DNA of 64,000 nt from positions 93,006 through 157,005 of the forward strand of contig CABYCL010000001.1 in the NCBI GenBank assembly GCA_902517505.1. Direction: 5' to 3'. Made by a program: the position numbers and the translations under genes. This document shows, one piece after another, positions 1 to 48,243 of the stretch. Under the pieces are notes generated by a model. The model ran no database searches and was not told the origin of the DNA. It saw nothing but the letters and a program-made list of their open reading frames with translations. Numbering within the stretch: position 1 is the first letter of the stretch; each line of letters begins with the position of its first letter. The DNA comes from an uncultured SAR86 cluster bacterium. Its GTDB lineage: Bacteria; Pseudomonadota; Gammaproteobacteria; Magnimaribacterales; D2472.

Positions 1-528
1 TTTGCCTGTTTGTCTGTCTCCAATTATTAATTCTCTTTGGCCTCTTCCGATTGGAACCATGGCGTCGACTGCTTTCAAACCAATCTGAACTGGTTGATCA
101 ACAGATTGACGAGCGATAACACCTGGAGCAACAACCTCAACAGGCGCAGTATTTTCTGCTTTTATTTCACCCTTTCCATCAATTGGAGCACCCAGAGTAT
201 TTACTACCCTTCCTAACATAGCCTCACCAACTGGAACCTCTAAAACTTTTCCTGTACAAACTGCTTTTTGGCCTTCAATTATTTCTAAATAATCTCCTAA
301 GACAACTGCTCCAACTGAGTCTTGCTCTAGGTTTAGAGCCATGCCCTTAGTGCCATTTTCAAACTCTATAACCTCACCATACATTACATCTCCCATGCCA
401 TGTATTCTTACAATACCGTCAGATACGCTAACAACAATACCTTCATTTTTTCTTTCTGCAGAAAGATCCAGACCAGCAATTTTCTCTTTTAGAACACTAG
501 ATATTTCTGATGGATTTAATTGACTCAT
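1..528 (-). CDS. atpA: ATP synthase F1 alpha subunit, N-terminal part (gene runs off the window start)
   Basis: Hand translation from ATG at 528..526 gives [23 protein letters not shown]... It is still open at base 1 in ...[15 protein letters not shown] (Walker A). It follows atpH in canonical operon order. It is absent from the ORF track because no stop lies in the window. Confidence 0.9.
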
Positions 529-537
529 TTTTTCACC

Positions 538-1074
538 TTAAAAATTTAATTGGTTTACAAGTTTATTGACCTTTCCTCTAATGGAGAGGTCAAGTGTTTC
601 GTCGCCTATCTTAATTGATAAGCCGCCCATCATTTTTGGGTCTTTTGAAAAATAAATGTTGGCATCTTTGCCATATGTTGACCTTAGTTTTTTCTCTATG
701 CTATTTTTAGCTTCCTCTCCAGGCTCAACAGCAACATAAACCTGGATTGAATTTTGCTCTTTATGTTTCTCTAGAAGACTTTGGTAAATAGAATATATAG
801 GCTCAAGTAAATTTAAACGCTTGTTTTCAGCCAATATTTCAATAAGTTTTATTAAGGTATCAGAAGTGCTTTCTTCAAATAATTTAACAAGAATTTCTAC
901 AACCTCTTTTCTTGAGAAAGAAGGATTTTCTATAGTATTTTTAACACCTTCTGTTTGTGAAGCAGCAGCCATTATCTTAAGTTCTTCTGCCATTTCATCA
1001 AGATTGTTTGACTCCACAGCTGAGGCAAAAAGAGCTTTTGCATATGGTCTAGCTAAAGGTGTTAATTCAATCAT
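538..1074 (-). CDS. atpH: ATP synthase F1 delta subunit (OSCP)
   Basis: 178 aa. Position between atpF and atpA. N-terminus LARPYAKALF is typical of the delta subunit. Confidence 0.9.
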   Translation of the reverse strand: MIELTPLARPYAKALFASAVESNNLDEMAEELKIMAAASQTEGVKNTIENPSFSRKEVVEILVKLFEESTSDTLIKLIEILAENKRLNLLEPIYSIYQSLLEKHKEQNSIQVYVAVEPGEEAKNSIEKKLRSTYGKDANIYFSKDPKMMGGLSIKIGDETLDLSIRGKVNKLVNQLNF

Positions 1075-1077
1075 TAT

Positions 1078-1548
1078 CTATAATTCCTCTGCTGCTTTTT
1101 TGAGAATAGCTTCGTGTTTTTCTTTTGAGATTTCATCGCCTAGAATTTTTTGGGTTGTATCAATAATGATGTCTGACATTTGTTCTCTTAGTTCTTCTTT
1201 CGCTTTATTGGTTTCATTCTCAATGGCCGTTGATGCTGATGCCATTATTTTCTCTGCTTCAGACTCTGCTTTTTTTGATGCATCTCCAACAATCTGGGAC
1301 GCTCTAGTGTTTGCCTTCTCAAGAATTTCGGCGGCCTCACTTTTTGCTTGATTTAACTCCTTATCAAAAGCTAATTTGGCCTCCTCTAGAGAATCGTCTG
1401 CTTTTTTGGCTGCCTCTAATCCATCAGAAATCTTTTTTTCTCTTTCTTGCATAACCGAAAGTATTGGAGGATAAATATATCTCCAACATATAGCCACAAA
1501 AACAATCATTACGACTGCTTGAGCAAGTAAGGTTGCGTTTATATTCAT
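1078..1548 (-). CDS. atpF: ATP synthase F0 subunit b
   Basis: 156 aa with an N-terminal TM helix and a long charged helix. Operon position. Confidence 0.9.
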   Translation of the reverse strand: MNINATLLAQAVVMIVFVAICWRYIYPPILSVMQEREKKISDGLEAAKKADDSLEEAKLAFDKELNQAKSEAAEILEKANTRASQIVGDASKKAESEAEKIMASASTAIENETNKAKEELREQMSDIIIDTTQKILGDEISKEKHEAILKKAAEEL

Positions 1549-1563
1549 ATCTTATTTGTTATC

Positions 1564-1794
<231 letters not shown>

Positions 1795-1808
1795 CTATAA
1801 GTTGAGGA

Positions 1809-3106
<1,298 letters not shown>

Positions 3107-3136
3107 GTTGTTTTTATCTTAATTTTTTAAACTTAA

Positions 3137-3976
3137 TTACTTTTTTAGTTTTGAAATAATAATATCAAGCTCGTCTAGGGTCTTATAAAAAATACTTACT
3201 TTGCCGCTTTTTTTATTTTTTGATTCTATTTCTATCTTATGTCCAAAATCTCCAGACATCTCTTGCTCTATATTTAAAATATCTGTGTCTTTGTTGTTTT
3301 TATTAACGCTTTTAGATGTTTTTTTATGGTTCGATAGTTTATTTAGATCTTTGACACTAAGCTTGTTTTTTATAATATTTTCGGCTGCTTTTTCTGCCTC
3401 TTCTGGATCAAGGGATGCAAGGAGTTTAGCGTGCCCTTTTTCAATTTGCCCAGCCGAAAGCATATCCAGAACCCTGGGTGGAAGAGATAATAACCTCAAG
3501 GAGTTTGCTATAGTGCTTCTAGCCTTTCCTGTAGAAGTAGCAACCTCTTCTTGGGTTAGACCAAACTCTCTTTTTAGTCTGTCTAGGCCTCTTGCCTCCT
3601 CTACAGGGTTAAGATCTTCTCTTTGTAAGTTTTCTATAAGGGCCGATACCAACGCATCTTGGTCTTGTTTTTGGTCGACCAAACATGGAATTGTTTTTAG
3701 TTTAGCCATTTTTGAGGCCCTTAATCTTCTTTCTCCTGCAATAACCTCATATTCGTTTAAGCCGAGCTCTCTTACTAAGATTGGAGATAATACCCCTTGG
3801 TTTTTTATCGAGGCTGTTAGCTCTTCCAGTTTTTCGCTATCAAAATTTGATCTTGGTTGGAATCTTCCTGGTTTTATTTTGTTTAGGTCAATTTCTTTTA
3901 CCGCTCTTTGGTTTGTGTTTGATTGACCTAACAAAGCATCTAGTCCTTTGTTTAATGTTTTTTTGTCTTCAGGCAT
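3137..3976 (-). CDS. parB: Chromosome partitioning protein ParB (Spo0J)
   Basis: 279 aa with the GERRLRA box and an HTH region. Overlaps the parA stop. Confidence 0.9.
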   Translation of the reverse strand: MPEDKKTLNKGLDALLGQSNTNQRAVKEIDLNKIKPGRFQPRSNFDSEKLEELTASIKNQGVLSPILVRELGLNEYEVIAGERRLRASKMAKLKTIPCLVDQKQDQDALVSALIENLQREDLNPVEEARGLDRLKREFGLTQEEVATSTGKARSTIANSLRLLSLPPRVLDMLSAGQIEKGHAKLLASLDPEEAEKAAENIIKNKLSVKDLNKLSNHKKTSKSVNKNNKDTDILNIEQEMSGDFGHKIEIESKNKKSGKVSIFYKTLDELDIIISKLKK

Positions 3977-4730
3977 ACTCCACCTTCCTAATTACCTCAC
4001 CAGCCAGGGCTAAATAAGCCTTAGCACCGTAAGAGTTTGGCATATATTTTATACCAGATATTCCGTGGCTGGGGGCCTCGGCCAGTTTTACATTTCTTGG
4101 TATTAGTGTATTAAAAACCAAATTCTTAAAGTGCTTTTCCAACTCATCAGAAACCTCTTTTGCTAGGTTGTTTCTCATATCAACCATTGTTCTTACAATA
4201 CCAATAACCCTGTTAGATGACATGTTTTTGTCTGAAAGTGTTTGAATGGTTGTCATAAGACCAGTAACCCCTTCCAACGAATAATACTCACACTGAAGTG
4301 GTATTAGCGTTCCAGACGCACAAAAAAGACCCTCTATTGTTAGTTGATTTAATGTTGGGGGTGTATCAATAATTGTATAGTCATATTTATTAGAAATCCC
4401 TTCTAGGCTTTTCAAAAGAAATCCTTGTTTGTTGTCGTTTCTAATTGAAACCTCAAGCGCAATTAACTCTTCACCCCCAGGGATGATGTCGTACCCGTCT
4501 TTACTTGAGTATGTGCAGTCCTCGATTGGGATGGTATCAAAATAATGGTTGTAAAGCGTGTTTGGGTCCTCTGTTAGAATGCCTGCTGCTGTGCTGGCAT
4601 TTCCTTGGGGGTCCATGTCAATTAAAAGAACCTTTCTTTTTGTTGCTGCAAGGCTTGCTGAAAGATTAACTGCTGTTGTTGTTTTGCCAACTCCTCCTTT
4701 TTGGTTTGCAATTGCTATTATTTTATTCAT
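3969..4730 (-). CDS. parA: Chromosome partitioning ATPase ParA/Soj
   Basis: 253 aa with deviant Walker A KGGVGKTT. Confidence 0.9.
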   Translation of the reverse strand: MNKIIAIANQKGGVGKTTTAVNLSASLAATKRKVLLIDMDPQGNASTAAGILTEDPNTLYNHYFDTIPIEDCTYSSKDGYDIIPGGEELIALEVSIRNDNKQGFLLKSLEGISNKYDYTIIDTPPTLNQLTIEGLFCASGTLIPLQCEYYSLEGVTGLMTTIQTLSDKNMSSNRVIGIVRTMVDMRNNLAKEVSDELEKHFKNLVFNTLIPRNVKLAEAPSHGISGIKYMPNSYGAKAYLALAGEVIRKVEYA

Positions 4731-5314
4731 TTTTCTCTTATCAAAACCACATGCCTTTCTTCGGGGCCAAGCTCTTGTTTAATTATTTCATATATGTGAG
4801 TGTTTTTGTTTATGTCTTTTAATTCTTGTTTTATGGTTTTCTCTTTGCCTTTTAGTAAAACATATTTGGATTTGTTGTTTGTGTTGTTTTGAGTAAGGTC
4901 TATTATGTTTTTTATGTTTGAAAAGGCTCTTGCTGTAATGATATCGAATGTGCCAAGGGTGTTGTTTGTGGTTATCTTTTCATTAATTATGGTTGTGTTG
5001 CTTAAGGAAAGTTTATCGACAGCGGTCCTTAAGAAATAGCATTTTTTAGCGCTGCTTTCTATTAGATATATTTTGTTTTTTGGTTTTATTATTGATAAAA
5101 GAATGCCTGGAAACCCTCCTCCAGACCCAAGGTCTAGAGTTGTTTTTTCCTTTTTTAGGTATTGGATTATTGGTTGGCAATCAAGAATGTCTTTATAAAA
5201 AACCTCTTGGTTGTCTGCTCTTGAAAAAATATTGTGTGTTTTGTTGAATTCTAGTGCGAGATCTATAAATATGGATATTTTTTTATTTTGTTCTTTTGTG
5301 AACAGGTTATGCAT
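4727..5314 (-). CDS. rsmG: 16S rRNA (guanine527-N7)-methyltransferase
   Basis: 195 aa with SAM motif [11 protein letters not shown]. Lies between mnmG and parA. Coding strand is unusually A+C rich. Confidence 0.85.
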
Positions 5315-7154
5315 CTTGTTTTTGCAGCTCGTTTTTTTTCAATTGTATTAGTATTAGATTAACCGCTGCTGGGGTTACACCCTCAAGCCTTGAGGCCATA
5401 CCGATTGTTTCTGGTTTGTGGTTTGTGAGTTTTTCTTTTACTTCATTAGAAAGCCCAGCTATATTTGAGTAGTTAAGGTTTGGTGGTATTTTTTTCTTGT
5501 TTTGTTTTTTTGTTTTTTTAATTTCTCTTAATTGTTTTTTAATATATCCTTCGTATTTTGCTTCCCTTGCTGCTCTTTCAAAAAACTTTTTTTCGTTTAT
5601 TTTTGTTTTGTAGATTTTTTTGTTGTCTATGTCTGTTCTTTTAAGTAATTCGGTGATGTTTTTTTTCTCTGGTAAATCAATTTTCTCATTTTTGTTATTT
5701 ATAAAAGATTTGATTTTTGTTTTTTTTAGGGTGTTTTTTATAAACTCTTTGTATTCCTGTTCTTTTTTTACGAATTCTTTCTTTCTGTTTTTTTCAATCA
5801 GCCTTAGATCAAAAGCTTTGAGCAGTAATCTTTGCTCAGCGTTGTTTTGTGATAAAAGGAGTCTGTGTTCTGCTCTGCTTGTAAACATTCTATATGGCTC
5901 GGTTATTCCATGGTTTGTGAGATCGTTTATAAGTACTCCTATATAAGCCTCGCTTCTCTCTAAAACAACCTCCCCTTTTTTTTGAATCGACCTTGTTGCG
6001 TTAACCCCTGCTATGAGCCCCTGTGCCGCCGCTTCTTCATAGCCTGTGGTTCCGTTAATTTGTCCGGCTAAATAAAAGTTTTTAAAAAATTTTGTTTCGA
6101 GGGTTTGTTTTATGTTTCTCGGGTCTATGAAGTCGTACTCAACAGCATAACCATACTCGGTGATGTTGGCATTTTCTAGTCCTTTTATTGAATAAATAAA
6201 ACTCTCTTGTGTTTTTTTTGGAAGGCTTGTTGATATTCCATTTGGGTAAACGAGGTCTTTGTTAATTCCCTCTGGTTCGATAAAAATCTGGTGGCTTTGT
6301 TTGTTTTTAAATTTATTTACCTTGTCTTCAATTGAGGGGCAGTACCTAGGCCCAATTCCAATTATGTTTCCTGAATACATTGCAGAAAGGTGTGTGTTTT
6401 TTTCTATTATTTGATGGGTTTTTTTGTTGGTTCTTGTTATAAAACAAGATAGTTGTTTTTGGTGTTTTTTTGGTCTGTTGTAAAGAGACATCCAAGGGGT
6501 TGGTTTTTCGCCAGGTTGTTCTTCCATTTTGTTTAGGTTGATGCTTGATAGTTTTATTCTTGCTGGTGTTCCTGTTTTAAGTCTTCCCATTGGGATATTT
6601 AAACTATAGAGTTTTTCTGAAAGCGGTATTGCAGAACCATCTCCAACCCTACCCCCAAGGGTTACCTCGTCTCCTGTATACATCCTACCGTTTAAAAAAG
6701 TTCCGGTTGTTAAGATTGTTCTTTTTGCTAATATTTTATGCTTGTTTGTAATAACGCCTTTAACTGTTTTTTTGTCTGTTATAAGGTCAATTACCTCATC
6801 CTCGATAATTTCTATGTTTGTTTTTTTAAGAATTTTTTGAACAGCTTTTTTATAAAGATCTCTGTCGCATTGAACCCTCAAAGCTTGAACTGCATCTCCC
6901 TTCCTTGTGTTAAGTGTTCTATATTGAATGCCTGACATATCTGTTGCTATAGGCATTAAACCCCCCATTGCTTCGATCTCTCTTACAATGTGAGATTTAC
7001 CCAGCCCTCCTATTGCTGGGTTGCATGACATTTGACCTATTGTTTTTAGATCAAAGGTAACCAGGGCGCATGAGAGTCCCATTCTGTTTACAGCATAAGC
7101 AGCCTCAACACCCGCATGACCAGCGCCCACTACAACCACATCGAATTTATACAT
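5307..7154 (-). CDS. mnmG: tRNA uridine 5-carboxymethylaminomethyl modification enzyme MnmG (GidA)
   Basis: 615 aa with N-terminal FAD fold [14 protein letters not shown] and conserved MnmG blocks. Confidence 0.95.
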
Positions 7155-7368
7155 AAATAATTAAATAATAATATCTATATTATATACTTTTTGTTATTTC
7201 TATTAGGTTTGATTTTTTTGTTTATAAGTGTTTGTTTTGCCTTCCTACTAAGGAATTCCGGTGATTATAACAGTTGTATAACCATGTTCTACTCGCTTTA
7301 AGTAACAGTTAATAAACTGTTGACCAAAAAAAACCATAAAAAAAAACAACAAAAAACTAACAGGTTAT

Positions 7369-8685
7369 CTACTTACCAATACAATAATTATTAAATATAT
7401 CCCCCAGCAAAGAATCAGAAAACTTCCTACCCACCAACTCATCCAAAAAACTCCTAGCAATTTTAAGATCTTCCGCAACAAGCTCTAAAGATTCACCAGT
7501 ATTTAAACTATTTAAAACCTGGTCTAAAACACCAACAACAGACTTAAACAAATTTTCATGCCTGTCCCTTACTATATATTTATAATCCTCTTTTTTAATT
7601 CCCTTTTTAAACCCAGAAACAATCAAACCCTTTAAAACATCAAAACCCTCACCAGTCTTTGCAGAAACACAGCAATCAAAAACACCACCATCAAACAAAG
7701 GACTAATATCTATTTTATTTTGAACAGAAATAAAAGGCACATCACCACATAAACCCTTAAATTTTTTTATTAACACAACATCATTTTCTTCAAAAACCCC
7801 AATCACCAAATCAGCCTGATTAATTTCAGACAAAGAAAGTTCTATACCAGCTTTTTCAACAACATCTGAGGTGTTCCTCACACCAGCAGAGTCAAAAATT
7901 GAAAATGAAGAAGACTCATAAAACAATTCACTACTAACAATATCCCTAGTAGTTCCAGGAACACTGGAAACCAACGCCCTCTCAAAACCAAGCAAGCGAT
8001 TAAAAACAGACGATTTACCAGAATTAACCGGACCAACCAACAAAACATTGTTTTTTTGGGAACAAACCTTTTTATTTACACAACCACCCACAAAAAGATC
8101 AAACCTATTTTTTAATTTGTTTATATCATTAACAATAGACTCATCCATATACTCTTGGCCTTCATCAGAAAAATCTATTTCCGCCTCAACCCTTACTCTT
8201 ATCTGATCCAGCTCATCAGCAAAAACAACAATATTTTTAGACATCTCACCAAACAGAGAACCGCCAGACAAAGTGACACCAACCTCATCCACGGAATCAA
8301 TCAAATCTGCAACAGATTCAGCCTCATTTAAACTAATTTTATTGTTTAAAAAAGCACGTTTGGTAAACTCTCCGCCAACCGCCTCCTCAAACCCCACACC
8401 TTTGAAAGATTTAATAAAAGAAGACATAACCCCCAAACTTCCATGAGCGTAGACCTCAAAAGAATCTTCACCTGTATAGCTGTTAGGCCCTTTAAAAACA
8501 ACAAGACCGGCCTTATCAATCAGAACATCGTTATAAAAAAAACCCCTGACATGAAATTGACCAATATTGAAACCTTTATTTTTAATTAACTTTTTAAGAT
8601 GTTTGTGACATCCAGGACCCGAAACCCTAAAAACACATATTGCTGATTTAGCTGGCGGAGTAGCTAAAGCAAATACCGTTGACAC
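7369..8685 (-). CDS. mnmE: tRNA modification GTPase MnmE (TrmE)
   Basis: The track ORF 7369..8973 carries a 96-codon N-terminal extension that overlaps yidC. Homology starts at VSTVFALATPPAKSAICVFRVSG, so the start is re-called at GTG 8685, 3 nt past the yidC stop. G1 motif GPVNSGKSS, TTRD, and C-terminal CIGK are present. Confidence 0.85.
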   Translation of the reverse strand: MSTVFALATPPAKSAICVFRVSGPGCHKHLKKLIKNKGFNIGQFHVRGFFYNDVLIDKAGLVVFKGPNSYTGEDSFEVYAHGSLGVMSSFIKSFKGVGFEEAVGGEFTKRAFLNNKISLNEAESVADLIDSVDEVGVTLSGGSLFGEMSKNIVVFADELDQIRVRVEAEIDFSDEGQEYMDESIVNDINKLKNRFDLFVGGCVNKKVCSQKNNVLLVGPVNSGKSSVFNRLLGFERALVSSVPGTTRDIVSSELFYESSSFSIFDSAGVRNTSDVVEKAGIELSLSEINQADLVIGVFEENDVVLIKKFKGLCGDVPFISVQNKIDISPLFDGGVFDCCVSAKTGEGFDVLKGLIVSGFKKGIKKEDYKYIVRDRHENLFKSVVGVLDQVLNSLNTGESLELVAEDLKIARSFLDELVGRKFSDSLLGDIFNNYCIGK

Positions 8686-8687
8686 AA

Positions 8688-10232
8688 CTAACCCGCACCA
8701 GGCCCGTGACCCATTCCTAAAGCACCATGTTTTTTGTATAAGTAACTCTGCTGCGCAAGCTGTACTCCGGTGTTTACAACTGTATACAAACAAAGAGCGG
8801 CTGGAAAAAACAAAAAGAAAACAGAAAACATAACAGGCATATATTTCATAACCTGGGCTTGTGTCGGATCCATACCAGCTGGTTGCGGATTTAACCTTTG
8901 AGTTAAAACCATTAACAAACCAAAGGCAGCAGGCAAAATAAAATATGGGTCTGGTGCTGAAAGATCCGCCCAAAAACCCAAAGTGCTAAACCTAAGCTCA
9001 ACCATCTCCCTCAATGCAAAAAAGAAACCAATAAAAAATGGCATTTGAATTAACAATGGCAAACAGCCACCCAAAGGATTTGCTCCGTGTTTCTTCATCA
9101 GCCTCATGGTTTCAGTGCCTTGGCTTTGGCGATCGTTTTTAAATCTTTCTTTTATTTCGTTCAATTCCGGTGTTATTTTTCTCAGAGCGGCCATAGACTT
9201 AAAGCTTTTCGCAGTCACAGGCCAAAACAAAAGCTTAATAAAAAGTGTAAAAATAATAATTGTTAGACCCCAACTATTAACATAACCATTTATAAAATCC
9301 ATCACAAAAACCATAGGTTGTGCTAAAAACCAAAACCAACCCATATCAATAGCAAGCTCCAAATTGTCTGCCCTCTGCATCAAATCTTTCCTTATTTTAG
9401 GCCCAACAAAAAGTCTGTGCTCATGACCATAAACCACATTAGAGGCGGACGACCCCTCAACAGTGTAACCCATTCTAAAAAACCCAGATTCTTTTGGTAA
9501 AACATAATAGTTATATATATGCTCATCCGAACCCAAAAGAGCAGCGAAGAAATATTTTTGAACAAAACCAATCCACCCCGACCTTGATAACACCTCGACA
9601 GGCTCATCTATTCTACTTAATCTTGATGTTGTGTAGGGGTCTGACTCAGAGCTGATAGCAACACCTTCGTAGGAGCTGTTGTTCATCATCCCACCCTCAA
9701 GAGCACCTCTTTTTAAATCAAGGGCCTTACCATCTGACCTGTAAAGACCAGCATAAGACTTACCTTTTATTCCTGAAGATGAGGAATCATAAATAGAAAC
9801 CTCATAAGGCGCGGCTGAAAGAGATATTCTTTTTGAAACACCCAGGCTTTCATCCACCAACTCAACATACCCATCCCCTAGATCATAAAGCCGATATTCT
9901 GGAACAACCCCAGTAAAACCACTTTTAAAATAATACTTAAAAGAAGAGCTTTTAGAAGAACCAAAAACCCTAAAACCAACAGAACCATCAACATTTTCTA
10001 CAGGATATTCCTTCAATCTCGATTCAACAATAGACCCACCAGAAACAGAAATAACCAACGAAAGCAAATCATTTTCTATTGAAACATAATCAGGATTTTG
10101 AAGATATTCAGACGATTTAACAGATGACAAATGATTTTCAATAGACTGGTTTTTTTGATCAGAGTTCCACTCATACAAAAGACCAAGCGACGACAAAACA
10201 ATAACAATTAAATAAATGCTTCTAATATTCAT
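8688..10232 (-). CDS. yidC: Membrane protein insertase YidC
   Basis: 514 aa with N-terminal anchor, large periplasmic domain and conserved C-terminal core (GANPLGGCLPLLIQMPFF). Confidence 0.95.
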   Translation of the reverse strand: MNIRSIYLIVIVLSSLGLLYEWNSDQKNQSIENHLSSVKSSEYLQNPDYVSIENDLLSLVISVSGGSIVESRLKEYPVENVDGSVGFRVFGSSKSSSFKYYFKSGFTGVVPEYRLYDLGDGYVELVDESLGVSKRISLSAAPYEVSIYDSSSSGIKGKSYAGLYRSDGKALDLKRGALEGGMMNNSSYEGVAISSESDPYTTSRLSRIDEPVEVLSRSGWIGFVQKYFFAALLGSDEHIYNYYVLPKESGFFRMGYTVEGSSASNVVYGHEHRLFVGPKIRKDLMQRADNLELAIDMGWFWFLAQPMVFVMDFINGYVNSWGLTIIIFTLFIKLLFWPVTAKSFKSMAALRKITPELNEIKERFKNDRQSQGTETMRLMKKHGANPLGGCLPLLIQMPFFIGFFFALREMVELRFSTLGFWADLSAPDPYFILPAAFGLLMVLTQRLNPQPAGMDPTQAQVMKYMPVMFSVFFLFFPAALCLYTVVNTGVQLAQQSYLYKKHGALGMGHGPGAG

Positions 10233-10546
10233 TTTAAACTTAAATCACCCGACAATGACTTTACCGCCTCATCAACCTCTAACAAAGCTTTTTCATATGA
10301 TAACTCCCCAAAAGGTCTAAATACAGAAAAAATAATAACCCCATCACCTGGAATAACAATATTAAGAGACCTAAAAATTTCTTTTATGTGTCTTTTTATT
10401 TTATTTCTTTTTACGGCTAGCCTAAAATATTTTTTTGATATCGAAATTTCTAAACCACCTTTAGATGAAGGCTTATAAAAAAGCCTAAAATTTTTACTTG
10501 AATAAATACAATTATAAGAATTAAATTTTTGATTTGAACCAGACAA
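10229..10546 (-). CDS. rnpA: Ribonuclease P protein component
   Basis: 105 aa, TTG start, RNR-type motif AVKRNKIKRHIKE. Lies between rpmH and yidC. Confidence 0.8.
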   Translation of the reverse strand: MSGSNQKFNSYNCIYSSKNFRLFYKPSSKGGLEISISKKYFRLAVKRNKIKRHIKEIFRSLNIVIPGDGVIIFSVFRPFGELSYEKALLEVDEAVKSLSGDLSLK

Positions 10547-10547
10547 A

Positions 10548-10682
10548 TTATGCGCTTAAAACCTTTCTTCCCTTTTTTCTTCTATTAGACAATACCGCCC
10601 TTCCTGCCTTGGTGGCCATTCTTGCTCGAAACCCATGTGTTCTTTTTCTTTTAAGGTTGCTTGGTTGGAAAGTTCTTTTCAT
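10548..10682 (-). CDS. rpmH: 50S ribosomal protein L34
   Basis: Not in the ORF track (44 aa). Hand translation gives [44 protein letters not shown] with a TAA stop at 10550..10548. Confidence 0.95.
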
Positions 10683-10779
10683 AATAAAATTAAGGTCAAA
10701 AAGTGATGAGAATTATAGCGCATTAATTTTTGAAAGCTAGGAAATGTACTATAAAAAAACAATTTTTTTTATATACAAC

Positions 10780-10788
10780 TTATCCACA
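10780..10788 (+). promoter_or_regulatory. Perfect DnaA box TTATCCACA upstream of dnaA
   Basis: Exact 9-mer consensus 75 nt upstream of the dnaA start. It is the only perfect box in the 180-bp rpmH-dnaA spacer. Confidence 0.6.
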
Positions 10789-10862
10789 GCAAATTCGTAT
10801 ATTTATTCTGTAGATATCTTGTGAAATTTTTAATAGACTATCTAGTCTAATAGGAGAAAGAA

Positions 10863-13259: not shown

Positions 13260-16961
<3,702 letters not shown>

Positions 16962-16963
16962 TA

Positions 16964-18310
16964 TTATTTCTTAATCAAATCTTTTATATACATAGCTAAC
17001 TCTTTAACTTGAAGCCTTGTTTGATTCATTGAGTCCCTATCTCTTAAGGTTACTGAATTATCATTAAGAGTATCAAAATCAACAGTTATGCATAAAGGTG
17101 TTCCTATTTCATCATGTTTTCTATAACTTTTTCCTATATTGCCTGTATTTTCAAGAATTATTCTACCCAAACCTATTTTTTGAAGATCATCTTTTATTTC
17201 TTTGGCAGTATTTACAATATCTTTATTATTCTTCTTTAGAGGTATAACTGCTGCTTTTACAGGTGATAAATGAGGTTTAAGTCTTAATACTATCCTATTT
17301 TTTCCGCCCTCCAATTCCTCATTTGTATACGCTTCATTTAAAATTGCTAGAAACCCTCTTTCGACACCTGCAGATGGTTCAATAACATAAGGTACAATCC
17401 AATCACCTGAATCATTTTTAACAGCCATCTTGCTATTAGAGTGTTTGTTTTTCTTTACATTTGAAGATATTTTAAGTTCATCCTGTTTTTTAGAATGGGA
17501 ACCTAGATCAAAATCAGTTCTGTTAGCTATACCCTCTAGTTCTTCTAACCCATGAGGAAATTTATACATTAAATCAACAGTCTTTTTTGAATAATGTGCT
17601 AACTCATCTGTGGGTACATCGTACAACTCAATACTTTTTATGGGTACACCTTGATTACTCCACCAGTCTAATCTTTTTTGTACCCATGATTCATGAGCAT
17701 CTTCATCTTCACCTGGCATTACAAAGTATTCTAATTCCATTTGTTCAAACTCTCTAACTCTAAATATAAAATTTCTTGGAGTTATTTCATTTCTAAATGC
17801 TTTACCAATTTGAGCTATTCCAAATGGTATTGGTTTAGATGTAGAATCTAATACATTTTTAAAATTTGTAAATATTTGTTGCGCTGTTTCTGGTCTAAGA
17901 TATGCATAATTAGAGCCATCTTCCAATGGTCCAACACTTGTTTTAAACATAAGATTAAATTGTCTAGGCTCAGTTAAATCCTCTTTTTTGCAATGATCTG
18001 GAACTTGATCCTCTCTGAACCTTAAATTGCATGATTTGCAGTCAACCATAGGATCAGAGAAGGTTTCTTCATGGCCTGAATACTTTAAGACTAGTGGATT
18101 TGTTAAAATTGATGAATCTAGGCCTTCAATATTGTCATTTTCATAGACCATTGCTTCCCACCATGCATTCTTAAGATTATTTTTTAACTCAACACCAAGG
18201 GGGCCAAAATCATATGTTCCCTGAAGGCCGCCATATATTTCGCTTGATTGAAATATAAAGCCTCTTCTTTTGCATAAAGCGACAATTTCATCCATGTTTT
18301 TAGCTGGCAC
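16964..18310 (-). CDS. glyQS: Glycine--tRNA ligase, single-chain dimeric (alpha2) type
   Basis: 448 aa, GTG start. N-terminus ...[31 protein letters not shown] is typical of GlyQS. No separate glyQ/glyS pair is present here. Confidence 0.9.
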
Positions 18311-46653: not shown

Positions 46654-47350
46654 ATTTATTTCTTATAATCTGTTCCAAATCATGCCAAGAAGAAAATTCA
46701 TCAGGTTTCTTAAAATCTTGAGCCCAACTAACATTATTATTATTAAACCATAGTGTATCTATGCCAAGATTATATGCACAAAAAATATCATTAATTTGAT
46801 GGTCGCCAATATGAAGAATATTACCAAATGAAATATTATTGACTTGCGAAATTGCCATATCAAAGTGAGCACGATTTGGCTTACTATCTTTTGCCTCAAG
46901 AGAACTTATAGAAAACTTAAAATACTTACCTATATCAAACTTATACACATCTGCATTGCCATTAGTTAGAACTCCTAAAATATATTTTTCTGACAAGTTC
47001 TTTATAGACTCTTTAACTCCATCAAACAATTTGATTTCATGTCTTTTCTCAATGAAGATGTCGAAAGCTTTATCTACAATTTCGTCTCTAAGATTTTCTG
47101 GAGTGACATGACTAAGTTTTTTTCTAAAAATCTCTTTTCTAAGTTTACTTATATCCCATTCTATAGTCTTATCTTCTCTAATTAGATCAGCACGAAGATT
47201 TATGAAGTCATTAAAATCTCCCCATTCAACTTCTCCAACTTTATTCTCAATCCATTCTCTGGTATCAACTTCAGCTTTCATGATGGTTGGATGGTTGTCC
47301 CAAAGGGTATCATCAAGATCAAAAGTTATCATTTTGATTTGCTTAATCAT
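46643..47350 (-). CDS. yigB: HAD-superfamily hydrolase (YigB-like)
   Basis: 235 aa with HAD motif I ITFDLDDTLW. Lies downstream of xerC, as in the E. coli dapF-yigA-xerC-yigB operon. Confidence 0.7.
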   Translation of the reverse strand: MIKQIKMITFDLDDTLWDNHPTIMKAEVDTREWIENKVGEVEWGDFNDFINLRADLIREDKTIEWDISKLRKEIFRKKLSHVTPENLRDEIVDKAFDIFIEKRHEIKLFDGVKESIKNLSEKYILGVLTNGNADVYKFDIGKYFKFSISSLEAKDSKPNRAHFDMAISQVNNISFGNILHIGDHQINDIFCAYNLGIDTLWFNNNNVSWAQDFKKPDEFSSWHDLEQIIRNKYER

Positions 47351-48243
47351 TTTTTAGCCCTAGGGTGAGATTGATCATAAATCTTTGCCAGATGTTGATA
47401 ATCTAATTTAGTATAAATTTGTGTTGTGGATAAAGAGCTGTGACCTAATAGTTCTTGGATTGTTCTGAGGTCGCCACTTGATTCAAGCATGTGAGTTGCA
47501 AAACTATGTCTTAGCATATGAGGATGAATCGGAGGAAGTCCTTGTTTAACAGCCATCTTTTTAAGCCTTAATTGAATACTCCTTACAGTTAATCTTGTTC
47601 CTTTAACATTTAAAAAAAGAGCATCCGTATCGCTTTGGAGTTTATCCCTTTCTTTTAACCAATCATTAATTGCATTTATTGCAAATCTACCCATTGGAAC
47701 CAATCTTGTTTTTGAACCTTTCCCGAGTACGCGTAAGAAAGATTTATTCTCTTCAAAATCATTTATATTTATATTTACAGTTTCTGAAACTCTTAATCCT
47801 GATGAATACATAAGTTCCACAATTGCCATGTCCCTAATCTCTATCATATTTGTTGGCTTAAAATTTAACAGTTGCTCAACATCCTCAGGTGACAAAACCT
47901 CAGGTAGATTGGTAGAAGATTTAGGAGATGTAACTAAATCAAAAGGTGAGGAATCTATTAGATTATTTTTTTTTAAAAATCTGAAAAATCCTTTTGCTGA
48001 TGATAAGTGTCTTTGAATGCTCCTAGGATTATTATTCTGAGAATAAAGACTTCCTATCCACGCAGAACAGGTTTCAGAATTAATTTGTGAATAATTTGAT
48101 ATATTTAAATCTTTTAGAAATGAATTAAGTTTTTTTAAGTCCCTTTCATAAGACCTAGAAGTATTATCAGAAAGATTTTTAACCTGTGATACAAATACCA
48201 AGTATTCTTTTATATCGTTAAGAATAAATGAATTATTGTTCAT
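47347..48243 (-). CDS. xerC: Tyrosine recombinase XerC
   Basis: 298 aa with the catalytic pattern R..HxxR..Y (HMLRHSFATH, LGHSSLSTTQIYT). The dapF-yigA-xerC context supports XerC. Confidence 0.88.
   Translation of the reverse strand: MNNNSFILNDIKEYLVFVSQVKNLSDNTSRSYERDLKKLNSFLKDLNISNYSQINSETCSAWIGSLYSQNNNPRSIQRHLSSAKGFFRFLKKNNLIDSSPFDLVTSPKSSTNLPEVLSPEDVEQLLNFKPTNMIEIRDMAIVELMYSSGLRVSETVNININDFEENKSFLRVLGKGSKTRLVPMGRFAINAINDWLKERDKLQSDTDALFLNVKGTRLTVRSIQLRLKKMAVKQGLPPIHPHMLRHSFATHMLESSGDLRTIQELLGHSSLSTTQIYTKLDYQHLAKIYDQSHPRAKK

Follow-up and report, generated by a model that had tools for sequence, protein, structure and literature searches.

A reversed strand-composition domain centred near the mnmE-mnmG spacer, the predicted replication origin, of SAR86 bacteria

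Introduction

The replication-associated GC and keto skew of the Lobry type is a chromosome-wide feature of bacterial genomes, with one change of sign at oriC and another at the terminus. In vertebrate mitochondria, the skew of the H-strand is reportedly proportional to the time spent single-stranded, a relation said to go back to Reyes in 1998 and to Faith and Pollock in 2003. Transcription is likewise said to leave a mark, in the form of a G+T excess on the non-template strand, in work attributed to Francino and Ochman between 1996 and 2001 and to Green in 2003. At a smaller scale, a mutation footprint of Pol I around the origin of the ColE1 plasmid has reportedly been described by Allen et al. 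in NAR in 2011. Strand skew associated with replication has been reviewed (PMC3269012).

Here we describe a strand-composition domain in SAR86, abundant marine bacteria in which the bias has altered both codon usage and amino-acid content in essential genes. The window, that is the whole stretch of DNA analysed, comprises 64,000 nucleotides of an uncultured SAR86 cluster bacterium (Magnimaribacterales; contig CABYCL010000001.1). A first-pass annotation, made from the letters alone, had drawn attention to a mirror-image G+T versus A+C bias around the mnmE-mnmG spacer. No published description of such a domain was found.

The biased domain

The observation is real and strong, and it is no artefact. 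In 1-kb blocks, the plus-strand keto skew runs from +0.17 to +0.29 at 3-7 kb and from -0.19 to -0.22 at 7-10 kb; over the rest of the 64 kb its absolute value is at most 0.16. The twelve hand counts of base composition in the first-pass annotation were all exact on recount, and its gene identities, together with the common minus strand of the genes, were confirmed by NCBIfam. Four-fold degenerate sites of rnpA-yidC-mnmE are G+T-rich on the sense strand, with a keto skew (keto4) of +0.31 to +0.64 (rnpA +0.31, yidC +0.47, mnmE +0.64), and those of mnmG-rsmG-parA-parB are A+C-rich, at -0.12 to -0.33 (mnmG -0.23, rsmG -0.33, parA -0.12, parB -0.22), against a background of 0.00 ± 0.13 in the remaining 55 genes of the window. 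The four-fold sites of mnmE hold A, C, G and T on the sense strand at.11,.07,.15 and.66, respectively. At two-fold sites, C/(C+T) reaches.52 in mnmG,.58 in rsmG,.45 in parA and.42 in parB, and G/(A+G) reaches.51 in mnmE,.46 in yidC and.30 in rnpA, each against a background of.22 ±.06. Compared with the genes of the window, the third-position skews are outliers by 4-6 SD, and GC3 at 1-10 kb lies above that of the rest of the window.

Left of the centre the plus strand is rich in G+T, and right of it in A+C, opposite to the rule by which leading strands are G+T-rich. The cumulative skew has its maximum at ~7 kb, a polarity of converging leading strands (terminus-type), so that the reversed polarity noted at first reading is borne out by the window skew. 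On both arms the skew drops to background (~0.045) some 4 kb from the centre and has no whole-replichore extent; its amplitude within the arms (0.3-0.6) is ~10 times that outside. A weak asymmetry with the sign of the right arm runs over 11-64 kb (p=0.002), and right of 10.7 kb the sign of the skew is not reversed. By the textbook rule, this weak skew would correspond to forks moving toward the locus, a point against the explanation favoured below.

The right arm (7369..10546, minus strand), delimited by keto4, G/(A+G) and pooled bins, comprises mnmE (true start ~8685), yidC and rnpA. Its sense strand is G+T-rich and A-poor, most strongly in mnmE, with pooled keto4 bins of +0.59,.58,.51,.31,.38,.44 and.25; the skew is greatest at the promoter-distal end, and the GC skew of the non-template strand reaches +0.5. 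The arm stops at the operon boundary, which also speaks against the favoured explanation. The first gene of the operon is rpmH (10548..10682, minus strand; from the sequence and an alignment of relatives), adjoined by the rpmH-dnaA spacer (10683..10862), which is conserved in relatives and forms the right border of the domain. This spacer contains one perfect DnaA box at 10780-10788 and then an A/T run, both conserved; the sole perfect DnaA box is found upstream of dnaA and not in the mnmE-mnmG spacer. The rpmH-dnaA spacer is a candidate for an alternative or second origin.

The left arm (3137..6700, minus strand), delimited by keto4 and C/(C+T) relative to background, comprises parB, parA, rsmG and most of mnmG. 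Here A+C predominate on the sense strand and G+T on the plus strand. From its peak in mnmG and rsmG, the bias falls off across parA and parB, with pooled keto4 values in 12 genomes of -0.41, -0.28, -0.42, -0.29, -0.18, -0.12, -0.17 and -0.20, then ~0. A sharp left end had been placed at the parA/rsmG boundary, but only the G>C component stops there, and the bias toward C-ending and A-ending codons persists at lower amplitude through parA, parB and atpI before it is gone by ~2.6 kb. Similarly, the four Asn codons singled out at first reading are all AAC, but they are not consecutive, being interrupted by a Thr codon (4874-4888).

The switch zone and the mnmE-mnmG spacer

Binned skew places the switch from right-arm to left-arm synonymous skew at 6700..7260, a zone that covers mnmG up to ~450 nt from its start, together with the half of the spacer next to that gene. 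A sign change near the spacer, as first described, stands, but a step there does not hold at synonymous sites, where the switch is a gradient into mnmG: pooled keto4 in 150-nt bins of the gene reads +0.18, -0.04, -0.22 and -0.41, with a zero crossing ~200 nt inside it. Raw skew was followed across the zone in 100-nt bins of 10 genomes. The mnmE-proximal half of the spacer (7260..7368, minus strand; raw skew, alignment and box-like sites) is non-coding and unconserved in sequence, yet its minus strand is G+T-rich in every relative (raw keto skew +0.38 ± 0.07 in 10 divergent genomes). The passage of the spacer from T-runs to A-runs is seen in the sequence as described, and the argument drawn from it, that coding selection is not the sole cause of a bias that reaches non-coding DNA, is upheld. 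No terminator or Rfam element was found.

Directly upstream of the mnmG ATG lies a conserved AT-rich stretch (7155..7186, minus strand) that is nearly invariant across 12 SAR86 genomes by alignment. MAFFT sets it against the 13-mer L/M region of E. coli, making it a candidate DNA unwinding element, and a promoter-like match shows that it also contains a TATAAT-like -10 of mnmG. Next to it, CTAATAGAAATAACAAAAAG (7187..7206, minus-strand reading), similar to the E. coli 13-mer R (CTAATAAGAGATC), opens with two DnaA-trio-type triplets (CTA ATA), 12 nt from a conserved DnaA-box-like 9-mer. This 9-mer (7219..7227, minus strand) aligns at the position of E. coli box R1 and reads TTATAAACA in the window, TTATTAACA in most SAR86, TTATACACA in L005 and L008, and TTATGCACA in the sister lineage L018. 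As a whole, MAFFT places the conserved block against the R1 box and 13-mers of E. coli oriC in the same orientation, at an overall identity of only 40%. The distance from box to unwinding element (12-13 nt) is that of E. coli oriC, and the AT-rich element lies on the mnmG side of the box-like site, directly upstream of mnmG, in the E. coli/Vibrio-type layout. The skew switches within ~300 nt of this block, the predicted origin.

A canonical DnaA-box cluster is absent from the SAR86 spacer, a point against the explanation favoured below; the spacer holds one well-conserved site with 2 mismatches and weaker ones, including 7365-7373 in its mnmE-proximal half. Box-like sites with ≤2 mismatches number 29 against 11.4 expected in the spacers of 11 genomes. 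Inspection of the sequence by eye revealed no GATC cluster in the spacer. The rule proposed for oriC is a DnaA box, a spacer of ≤16 nt and ≥3 DnaA-trios (PMC8287927). The window presents a box, a 12-nt spacer and CTA ATA followed by GAA; consecutive triplets after the box number four in L004 and three in L018, in all cases a weak pattern in AT-rich DNA.

Evidence for a nearby origin

The spacers of L018, L021, L045 and L020, which share the gene order, carry 3-7 DnaA boxes with ≤1 mismatch, and in L018 and L021 only one box lies upstream of dnaA. The box positions in L018 (-200, -166 and -67) match the positions of the SAR86 motifs. Since L021, L045 and L020 possess good spacer boxes without the skew, an origin alone is insufficient to produce it. 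A parS-like palindrome (TGTTCCACGTGGAAC; 14311..14326, a conserved motif match) lies at the 3' end of recF, 7 kb from the locus, and is one of three such matches in the window where 0.39 are expected. Across 10 SAR86 relatives its sequence is unchanged, including those whose RecF is only 47-51% identical, and such a site points to an origin-proximal region. The gene order around dnaA is presumably that of the Pseudomonas origin region.

No dif-like site was found at the locus in the window or in 6 relatives; the window does contain xerC at another position. The locus is unlikely to be a true terminus, given this lack of dif and the nearby dnaA, parAB and parS. The first-pass annotation had weighed fork convergence, a resected break and exposed leading-strand templates equally, a balance no longer tenable now that the terminus is disfavoured by the missing dif and the conserved parS. 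Its placing of the locus at the position of a Vibrio/enterobacterial-type oriC has fared better, being supported by the MAFFT match and the box clusters of sister lineages. Judged from these sequence features, the SAR86 origin most likely lies in the mnmE-mnmG spacer, as an oriC of the E. coli/Vibrio type with its unwinding element abutting mnmG.

Distribution, site classes and direction of substitution

The difference between keto4 of mnmE and of mnmG is 0.64-0.98 in all 15 SAR86 genomes examined, is weaker in the sister lineage L018 (+0.31), and spans -0.20 to +0.26 in 22 other bacteria, where the contrast is absent. Four-fold sites are saturated between lineages, with a pairwise identity of.32-.46 that is close to the composition-only expectation, which means that each lineage maintains the bias now. 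The assemblies include single-cell genomes, long-read MAG contigs of 0.8-0.9 Mb and one contig of 1.19 Mb, and all 15, being independent, share pattern and gene order, which argues against the chimeric joins that the first reading had wished to see checked. Identity to close relatives is unbroken across the domain borders.

Every codon family is shifted in the biased arms. Codon positions 1 and 2 are shifted relative to orthologues (position 1 keto skew of MnmE +0.30 versus +0.04 in E. coli), and the bias is equal at conserved and variable residues, so the reported reach into synonymous sites and protein composition is substantiated. The ATP-synthase (atp) genes are without the bias, atp and cox genes both being near zero. 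Because all codon families, positions 1 and 2 and non-coding DNA are skewed, and conserved residues behave as variable ones, codon-anticodon selection, gene transfer and misassembly are excluded. Translational codon selection was rejected on these observations and on the differing atp genes. Transcription-associated strand asymmetry was also rejected, as it holds for the rpmH operon, is inverted in the mnmG operon and finds atp and cox near zero.

Instead of the classic C>T signature, the main change is that one strand is depleted of A, which gives way to G at two-fold sites (A>G) and to T at four-fold sites (A>T). The equilibrium ratio for A>G is up ~4-fold, C/T ratios hardly change and third-position GC goes up. 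Damage to single-stranded DNA should be mainly C>T, yet C/T hardly moves, an observation at odds with the favoured explanation. Polarised substitutions among close relatives run in the predicted direction, with right-arm rates of.207 versus.113 in the flanks for A>G and.113 versus.182 for T>C. Reverse rates are lowered as much as forward rates are raised, and no excess synonymous divergence was seen in the arms; the pattern is as compatible with biased fixation as with biased mutation.

Explanations of the domain

The bias is real, lineage-wide, currently maintained and present in all site classes, and it changes sign at an oriC-like module. We assign a probability of about 0.4 to an origin-centred mutational asymmetry linked to initiation, and infer that the module is an active origin and single-strandedness the cause. 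Both arms would represent the equilibrium reached under substitution that is strand-asymmetric and anchored by position, with the chromosomal origin at its centre; on each side, A would be lost and T and G gained over ~4 kb by the strand with its 3' end toward the origin. The A-losing strand would be the future leading-strand template, which is why the polarity opposes the chromosome-wide textbook skew. At each initiation, helicases may outrun the established leading-strand polymerase, such that the lagging-strand template is primed and filled and the leading-strand template stays single-stranded far longer than elsewhere on the chromosome; adenine damage could then build up on the exposed template, with A>G and A>T changes becoming fixed. 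The single-stranded state may be lengthened by the flanking operons, of which that of rpmH on the right is head-on and that of mnmG on the left co-directional. The gradual zero crossing within mnmG and the end of both arms ~4 kb out favour anchoring by position, although E. coli rates predict no 4-kb helicase run-ahead. It is only tentatively proposed that, in each cell cycle, SAR86 initiation leaves leading-strand templates single-stranded, or asymmetrically copied or repaired, for ~4 kb to the left and right of a minimal oriC. Were this true, a permanent footprint of reversed polarity would rewrite the amino-acid composition of MnmE, YidC, MnmG and RsmG, and base composition would record the mechanics of initiation beyond fork direction.

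Operon-level selection on nucleic-acid composition would instead keep the rpmH-rnpA-yidC-mnmE transcript or DNA G+U-rich and A-poor and the mnmG-rsmG-parA-parB transcript A+C-rich and U-poor, possibly for the R-loop behaviour of transcripts entering or leaving the origin, for Rho/termination control or for mRNA structure. The domains roughly match two tightly overlapping operons, the skewed non-coding tail past mnmE could be a 3' UTR, the strong GC skew of the right-arm non-template strand would favour R-loops, and the unfavoured changes (right-arm T>C, left-arm C>T) are slowed with no rise in divergence, as expected of a fixation bias. We consider such selection unlikely, however, as the sign change is graded across the initial ~450 nt of the mnmG transcript with no step at its start, the left arm weakens along its operon and spills over into atpI, residues are affected alike whether conserved or variable, and neither terminator nor Rfam element came to light. 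The accompanying drag on the amino-acid composition of conserved enzymes looks costly, and we know of no function that requires 3-4 kb of opposite composition in adjacent housekeeping operons.

Conflict between replication and transcription beside the origin, which would expose the leading-strand template in both arms, is rather improbable. On the right, the strongly promoted rpmH operon would meet the rightward fork head-on, with R-loops displacing the sense strand; on the left, where the mnmG operon is co-directional with the leftward fork, restart from mRNA would leave gaps on the leading-strand template. With an origin at the spacer, this polarity suits both arms, the head-on right arm is the stronger and the arm limits match operons. 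Yet the skew is almost missing from dnaA-gyrB and from the atp operon, which is co-directional and presumably strongly expressed, the right-arm skew peaks at the promoter-distal end, and bacteria with the same layout, including a probable spacer origin, lack it.

Convergence of forks at the spacer, to which we give similarly little credence, would lend the arms ordinary textbook polarity. Either the leftward fork from an rpmH-dnaA origin would be arrested ~3.5 kb off and the left side finished by the fork coming round the chromosome, or two closely spaced initiation sites would fire toward each other. The terminus polarity, the conserved perfect DnaA box and A/T run at rpmH-dnaA, the zero crossing (~6.9 kb) midway between the arm ends (~3.1 and ~10.7 kb) and the right-arm sign of the weak 11-64 kb asymmetry are all in keeping with it. 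What it leaves unexplained is an arm amplitude ~10 times that outside, with no leftward extension into the atp operon such as replication by a single fork would give, and no sign reversal right of 10.7 kb. Moreover, the search for a dif site was negative, parS and dnaA lie adjacent, forks would run head-on into the atp and dnaA-gyrB operons, and the flanking genes stand in what we take to be the Pseudomonas origin-region order.

A further explanation is repeated breakage or collapse of forks at the origin with 5'-3' resection, which would yield 3' tails (plus strand on the left, minus on the right) that are time and again single-stranded, gather damage and template repair. The polarity fits, as the G+T-rich strands end 3' at the centre, and decay over a few kb resembles the length of resection tracts; with no site-specific break element found beyond the origin-like block, no excess synonymous divergence in the arms and a weak C>T signal, its likelihood is lower again. 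An assembly chimera, or the recent horizontal transfer of two strongly skewed blocks, is very improbable in spite of the higher GC3 at 1-10 kb and is refuted by the comparative data, which show the pattern in 15 independent assemblies, a composition shared by lineages despite saturated synonymous sites, and neither a patchy distribution nor breaks of similarity at the borders.

Comparison with known systems

The SAR86 domain resembles a Lobry-type skew in its synonymous and non-coding asymmetry and its sign change at a fixed point that is the probable origin. It differs in that the strand of leading identity is A+C-rich (reversed), the extent is ~4 kb per arm rather than half a chromosome at ~10 times the genomic background, and A loss (A>G, A>T) rules instead of C>T. 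With the mitochondrial H-strand gradient it shares one keto-rich strand, A>G as a major change on the exposed strand, a reach into amino-acid composition and a dependence on position relative to the origin. The displaced strand of leading identity is exposed there, whereas SAR86 would expose the leading-strand template, in two short mirror arms without a genome-long gradient and with a weak C>T component. Transcription-associated asymmetry has the sign of the SAR86 right arm, and the domains are roughly operon-sized, but the co-oriented mnmG operon is inverted, the sign changes gradually inside a transcript and amplitude does not track expected expression, the atp genes being unaffected.

Like the E. 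coli/Vibrio-type oriC at gidA (mnmG)-mioC, the predicted SAR86 origin adjoins mnmG with the unwinding element on the mnmG side, in the order DnaA box, 12-13 nt, CTAATA(A)GA and AT-rich repeats. Unlike it, the SAR86 spacer measures only 214 bp and lacks mioC, its remaining boxes are degenerate, and mnmG of E. coli has an ordinary positive keto skew of +0.32. The ColE1 Pol I footprint is an experimental case on a plasmid, unidirectional and produced by an error-prone polymerase, and is no natural equilibrium composition; even so, it is, like the SAR86 domain, of kb scale, decaying with distance, strand-asymmetric and tied to the start of synthesis at an origin.

Gene order around the mnmE-mnmG spacer

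The identities of the genes in the window were confirmed with NCBIfam. The minus strand carries, from left to right, the atp genes, parB (3137-3976), parA and rsmG, mnmG (5307-7154), an intergenic spacer of 214 bp (7155-7368), mnmE (7369 to about 8685), yidC, rnpA and rpmH. To the right of rpmH lie dnaA, dnaN, recF and gyrB on the plus strand, and glyS, trkHA, fmt-def, tsaC, hemF, aroE, cox, polA, xerC, dapF-lysA, metK and tkt are found further right of gyrB. The nearest relatives, which share the gene order and have MnmG proteins 67-96% identical, are single-cell genomes and metagenome-assembled genomes (MAGs) of SAR86 (Magnimaribacterales), and an exact look-up of the window MnmE protein found none on record.

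A mechanically called mnmE reading frame (7369-8973) reaches 286 nt into yidC, the true start lying near 8685, and an antisense reading frame of 241 residues runs within parB (3201-3926); both probably arise as side effects of the compositional skew. The glycine-tRNA ligase at 16964-18310 is a single-chain dimeric enzyme (NF003211, 576 bits) and may represent an in-place replacement of the two-subunit glyQ/glyS that Pseudomonas carries at this position. Between 15000 and 17154, the 3′ end of gyrB and a reading frame without a family match (16257-16961) are only 87-89% identical to the related locus L001, compared with 93-97% in the adjoining segments, a difference suggestive of local import by recombination or of rapid evolution of the gene.

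Two arms of opposite strand bias

The first-pass annotation had proposed a mirror-image strand bias about the spacer, of polarity opposite to that of a textbook origin, from base counts made by hand, all of which proved exact on recount. Skew was calculated over the 64-kb window and over relatives' loci of about 22 kb. The plus-strand keto skew (G+T versus A+C) is +0.17 to +0.29 at 3-7 kb and about -0.2 at 7-10 kb, more extreme than anywhere else in the window. At four-fold degenerate sites on the gene-sense strand (keto4), the right arm reaches +0.64 in mnmE (T 66%, A 11%), +0.47 in yidC and +0.31 in rnpA, and the left arm shows -0.23 in mnmG, -0.33 in rsmG and -0.22 in parB, against a background of 0.00 ± 0.13 in the other 55 genes of the window. 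Two-fold sites favour C over T in the left arm (.42-.58) and G over A in the right arm (.46-.51), each against a background of.22 ±.06. Amino-acid composition as a confounder of the pooled four-fold sites is rejected, as every codon family is shifted, typified by the Gly codon GGT (.66 in the right arm,.20 in the left and.32 in the background).

The main change is that A is depleted on a single strand, which is the sense strand for the right arm and the antisense strand for the left. In the right arm, the frequency of A at four-fold sites drops from.40 to.12 and that of T climbs to.65; in the left arm, T declines from.42 to.22. At two-fold sites the A/G (right) or T/C (left) ratio is shifted about 4-fold and the complementary pair is nearly static. 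When pooled over 12 genomes on the gene-sense strand, the profile approaches the spacer through +0.25 (rnpA),.44,.38 and.31 (yidC) and.51,.58 and.59 (mnmE), and continues past it through -.08, -.41, -.28 and -.42 (mnmG), -.29 (rsmG), -.18 and -.12 (parA) and -.17 and -.20 (parB and atpI) to about 0 thereafter. The switch of sign is a gradient (+.18, -.04, -.22 and -.41 in successive 150-nt bins of mnmG) that crosses zero about 200 nt within mnmG, with no step at a promoter, and each arm stops about 4 kb from this crossing, the right one at the rpmH-dnaA spacer.

A weak asymmetry is also present at the four-fold sites of 10863-64000, where keto4 is -0.036 in plus-strand and +0.054 in minus-strand genes (p=0.002); it shares its sign with the right arm, and ahcY and metK, both highly expressed, contribute to it.

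Distribution and age

The contrast, taken as keto4 of mnmE less that of mnmG, is 0.64-0.98 in 15 SAR86 assemblies, among them single-cell genomes, long-read MAG contigs of 0.8-0.9 Mb and one contig of 1.19 Mb. In 22 other bacteria whose mnmE and mnmG are adjacent, 11 of them as AT-rich, the same contrast averages 0.03 ± 0.12 and never exceeds 0.26, and nothing comparable was found in E. coli. It is attenuated (+0.31) in the closest non-core relative, the sister lineage L018, whose MnmG is 65% identical. The resemblance of four-fold sites among ten divergent SAR86 lineages does not exceed that predicted from composition, and the bias is therefore kept at equilibrium today in each lineage. The domain is a lineage-specific, local, reversed and high-amplitude form of strand compositional asymmetry, of which neither full-text literature searches nor the paper on the SAR86 isolate (PMC11582366) gave a description.

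The kind of pressure

Codon-anticodon selection (Watson-Crick versus wobble pairing) was considered because A/C-ending codons match G34/U34 tRNAs, and is rejected together with accuracy selection on four grounds. Codon positions 1 and 2 shift in the same direction as synonymous sites relative to orthologues, the position-1 keto skew being +0.30 in MnmE against +0.04 in E. coli and -0.04 in the compared locus L014, and -0.18 in MnmG against -0.08 to +0.06 in orthologues. Some 110 nt past the mnmE stop are not conserved in sequence and yet show a G+T excess in every lineage (+0.38 ± 0.07). An Akashi-type test showed no difference in the frequency of keto-ending codons between conserved and variable residues of any gene, and the bias is absent from the atp genes, which are presumed to be highly expressed. 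These findings point to a pressure acting on DNA, or on RNA, as such. No skewed oligomer (KOPS, Chi or other k-mer) was found as a driver, nor any known RNA element or tRNA, nor an intrinsic terminator in the spacer, and a conserved DNA element embedded in the 5′ part of mnmG is rejected, since synonymous sites are saturated there.

Third-position GC is raised in both arms, which argues against classical C>T deamination as the main driver. It ranges from 0.24 to 0.35 in genes left of dnaA (1-10232) and from 0.16 to 0.27 in the rest of the window, and such a net AT-to-GC shift in both arms is unusual for a mutational bias.

Singletons were polarised among five close genomes, and in a three-genome version, with the reservation that counts are small and that parsimony is biased when composition is skewed. 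A>G reaches.207 in the right arm (flanks.113), where T>C is.113 (flanks.182); for the left arm, the value of C>T is.273 (flanks.413) and that of T>C is unchanged. These directions match the composition, indicating an ongoing process. The drop in reverse rates is as large as the rise in forward rates, a pattern as compatible with fixation bias as with mutation bias, and local hypermutation is rejected, since synonymous divergence in the arms is no higher than in the flanks.

A candidate origin at the centre

Across SAR86, the 80 nt or so of the spacer that adjoin mnmG are nearly invariant. Reading toward mnmG, they comprise a DnaA-box-like 9-mer (TTATTAACA, TTATACACA or TTATAAACA), 12-13 nt of which the last few are G/C, and CTAATAGAAATAACAA, followed by an AT-rich run to the mnmG ATG. 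Box-like sites with up to two mismatches peak in the mnmE-mnmG and rpmH-dnaA spacers; a canonical DnaA-box cluster (up to one mismatch) was found in neither SAR86 spacer, and the rpmH-dnaA spacer holds one perfect, conserved box. The densest box-like cluster of the window, with four 9-mers (one perfect, three with one mismatch) in about 500 bp, is at 46941-47433, within xerC and its upstream gene.

A perfect, parS-like palindrome at the 3′ end of recF (14311-14326; TGTTCCACGTGGAAC) recurs without a change in 10 SAR86 relatives, including those in which RecF identity drops to 47-51%, and is probably the chromosomal parS. A search for a dif site or terminus found none. From these sequence features we conclude that the region is origin-proximal, with the mnmE-mnmG spacer as the best origin candidate and the rpmH-dnaA spacer as an alternative or second half.

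Interpretation

On either side of the centre, the G+T-rich strand has its 3′ end toward the centre. If forks diverge from the spacer, this strand would be the leading-strand template and the polarity would oppose the textbook rule, as the first-pass annotation held. The favoured reading, to which we assign a probability of roughly 0.4, is that SAR86 initiation leaves leading-strand templates exposed, or asymmetrically copied or repaired, over the first 4 kb or so, which would leave a local footprint much stronger than chromosome-wide skew. Against it stand the degeneracy of SAR86's own boxes, the better origin-like spacers of relatives without the skew, the weak C>T component, the lowering of reverse rates like the raising of forward rates without elevated divergence, and the faint same-sign asymmetry reaching 64 kb.

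Selection on composition at the level of the operon would act on DNA or RNA as such and fits the polarised rates as a fixation bias; the sign switches by a gradient within mnmG, and we consider this explanation unlikely. Somewhat less likely, and on a par with each other, are a replication-transcription conflict close to the origin and forks that converge or are arrested at the spacer, for which the dif search offers nothing. Recurrent breakage with resection about the centre is slightly more doubtful again. An artefact is exceedingly improbable, as the 15 assemblies agree and identity is unbroken, which also rules out assembly chimera and horizontal transfer.

If initiation does leave this footprint, the arms offer a sequence-only read-out of events in the first few kilobases after initiation, where single-strand exposure in vivo is, to our knowledge, hard to observe. 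A local substitution regime of only about 8 kb can evidently override genome-wide codon usage and alter the amino-acid composition of universally conserved enzymes. SAR86 is among the most abundant bacterial orders of the surface ocean, and proteins encoded at this locus serve as phylogenetic and genome-completeness markers, so that their distortion could bias tree placement and marker detection. In a closed SAR86 genome, 10% of gammaproteobacterial markers went undetected (PMC11582366). As a cultured isolate, Magnimaribacter mokuoloeensis HIMB1674, exists, these predictions are directly testable.

Comparison with known systems

No bacterial origin that we know of is flanked by so short and strong a skew domain with inverted polarity, and the SAR86 locus would be the first. 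The gene order of the window reproduces that of the origin-proximal region of Pseudomonas. In relatives that share this order, boxes with up to one mismatch number three in the spacer of L018 (one perfect), four in that of L021, three in L045 and seven in L020, with a single box upstream of dnaA in L018 and in L021, and the SAR86 motifs occupy the positions of the L018 boxes. The DnaA-box clusters between mnmE and mnmG in L018 (5060-5280) and L021 (7300-7510), both non-SAR86 gammaproteobacterial loci, suggest that a gidA-adjacent origin without mioC may be widespread beyond the Vibrio/enterobacterial group. The SAR86 block partially matches the box-spacer-trio rule (PMC8287927). MAFFT aligns it, at 40% identity overall, with E. 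coli R1 (TTATCCACA), the 13-nt spacer and the 13-mers R (CTAATAAGAGATC), M and L, and its orientation relative to mnmG (gidA) is identical to that of E. coli oriC.
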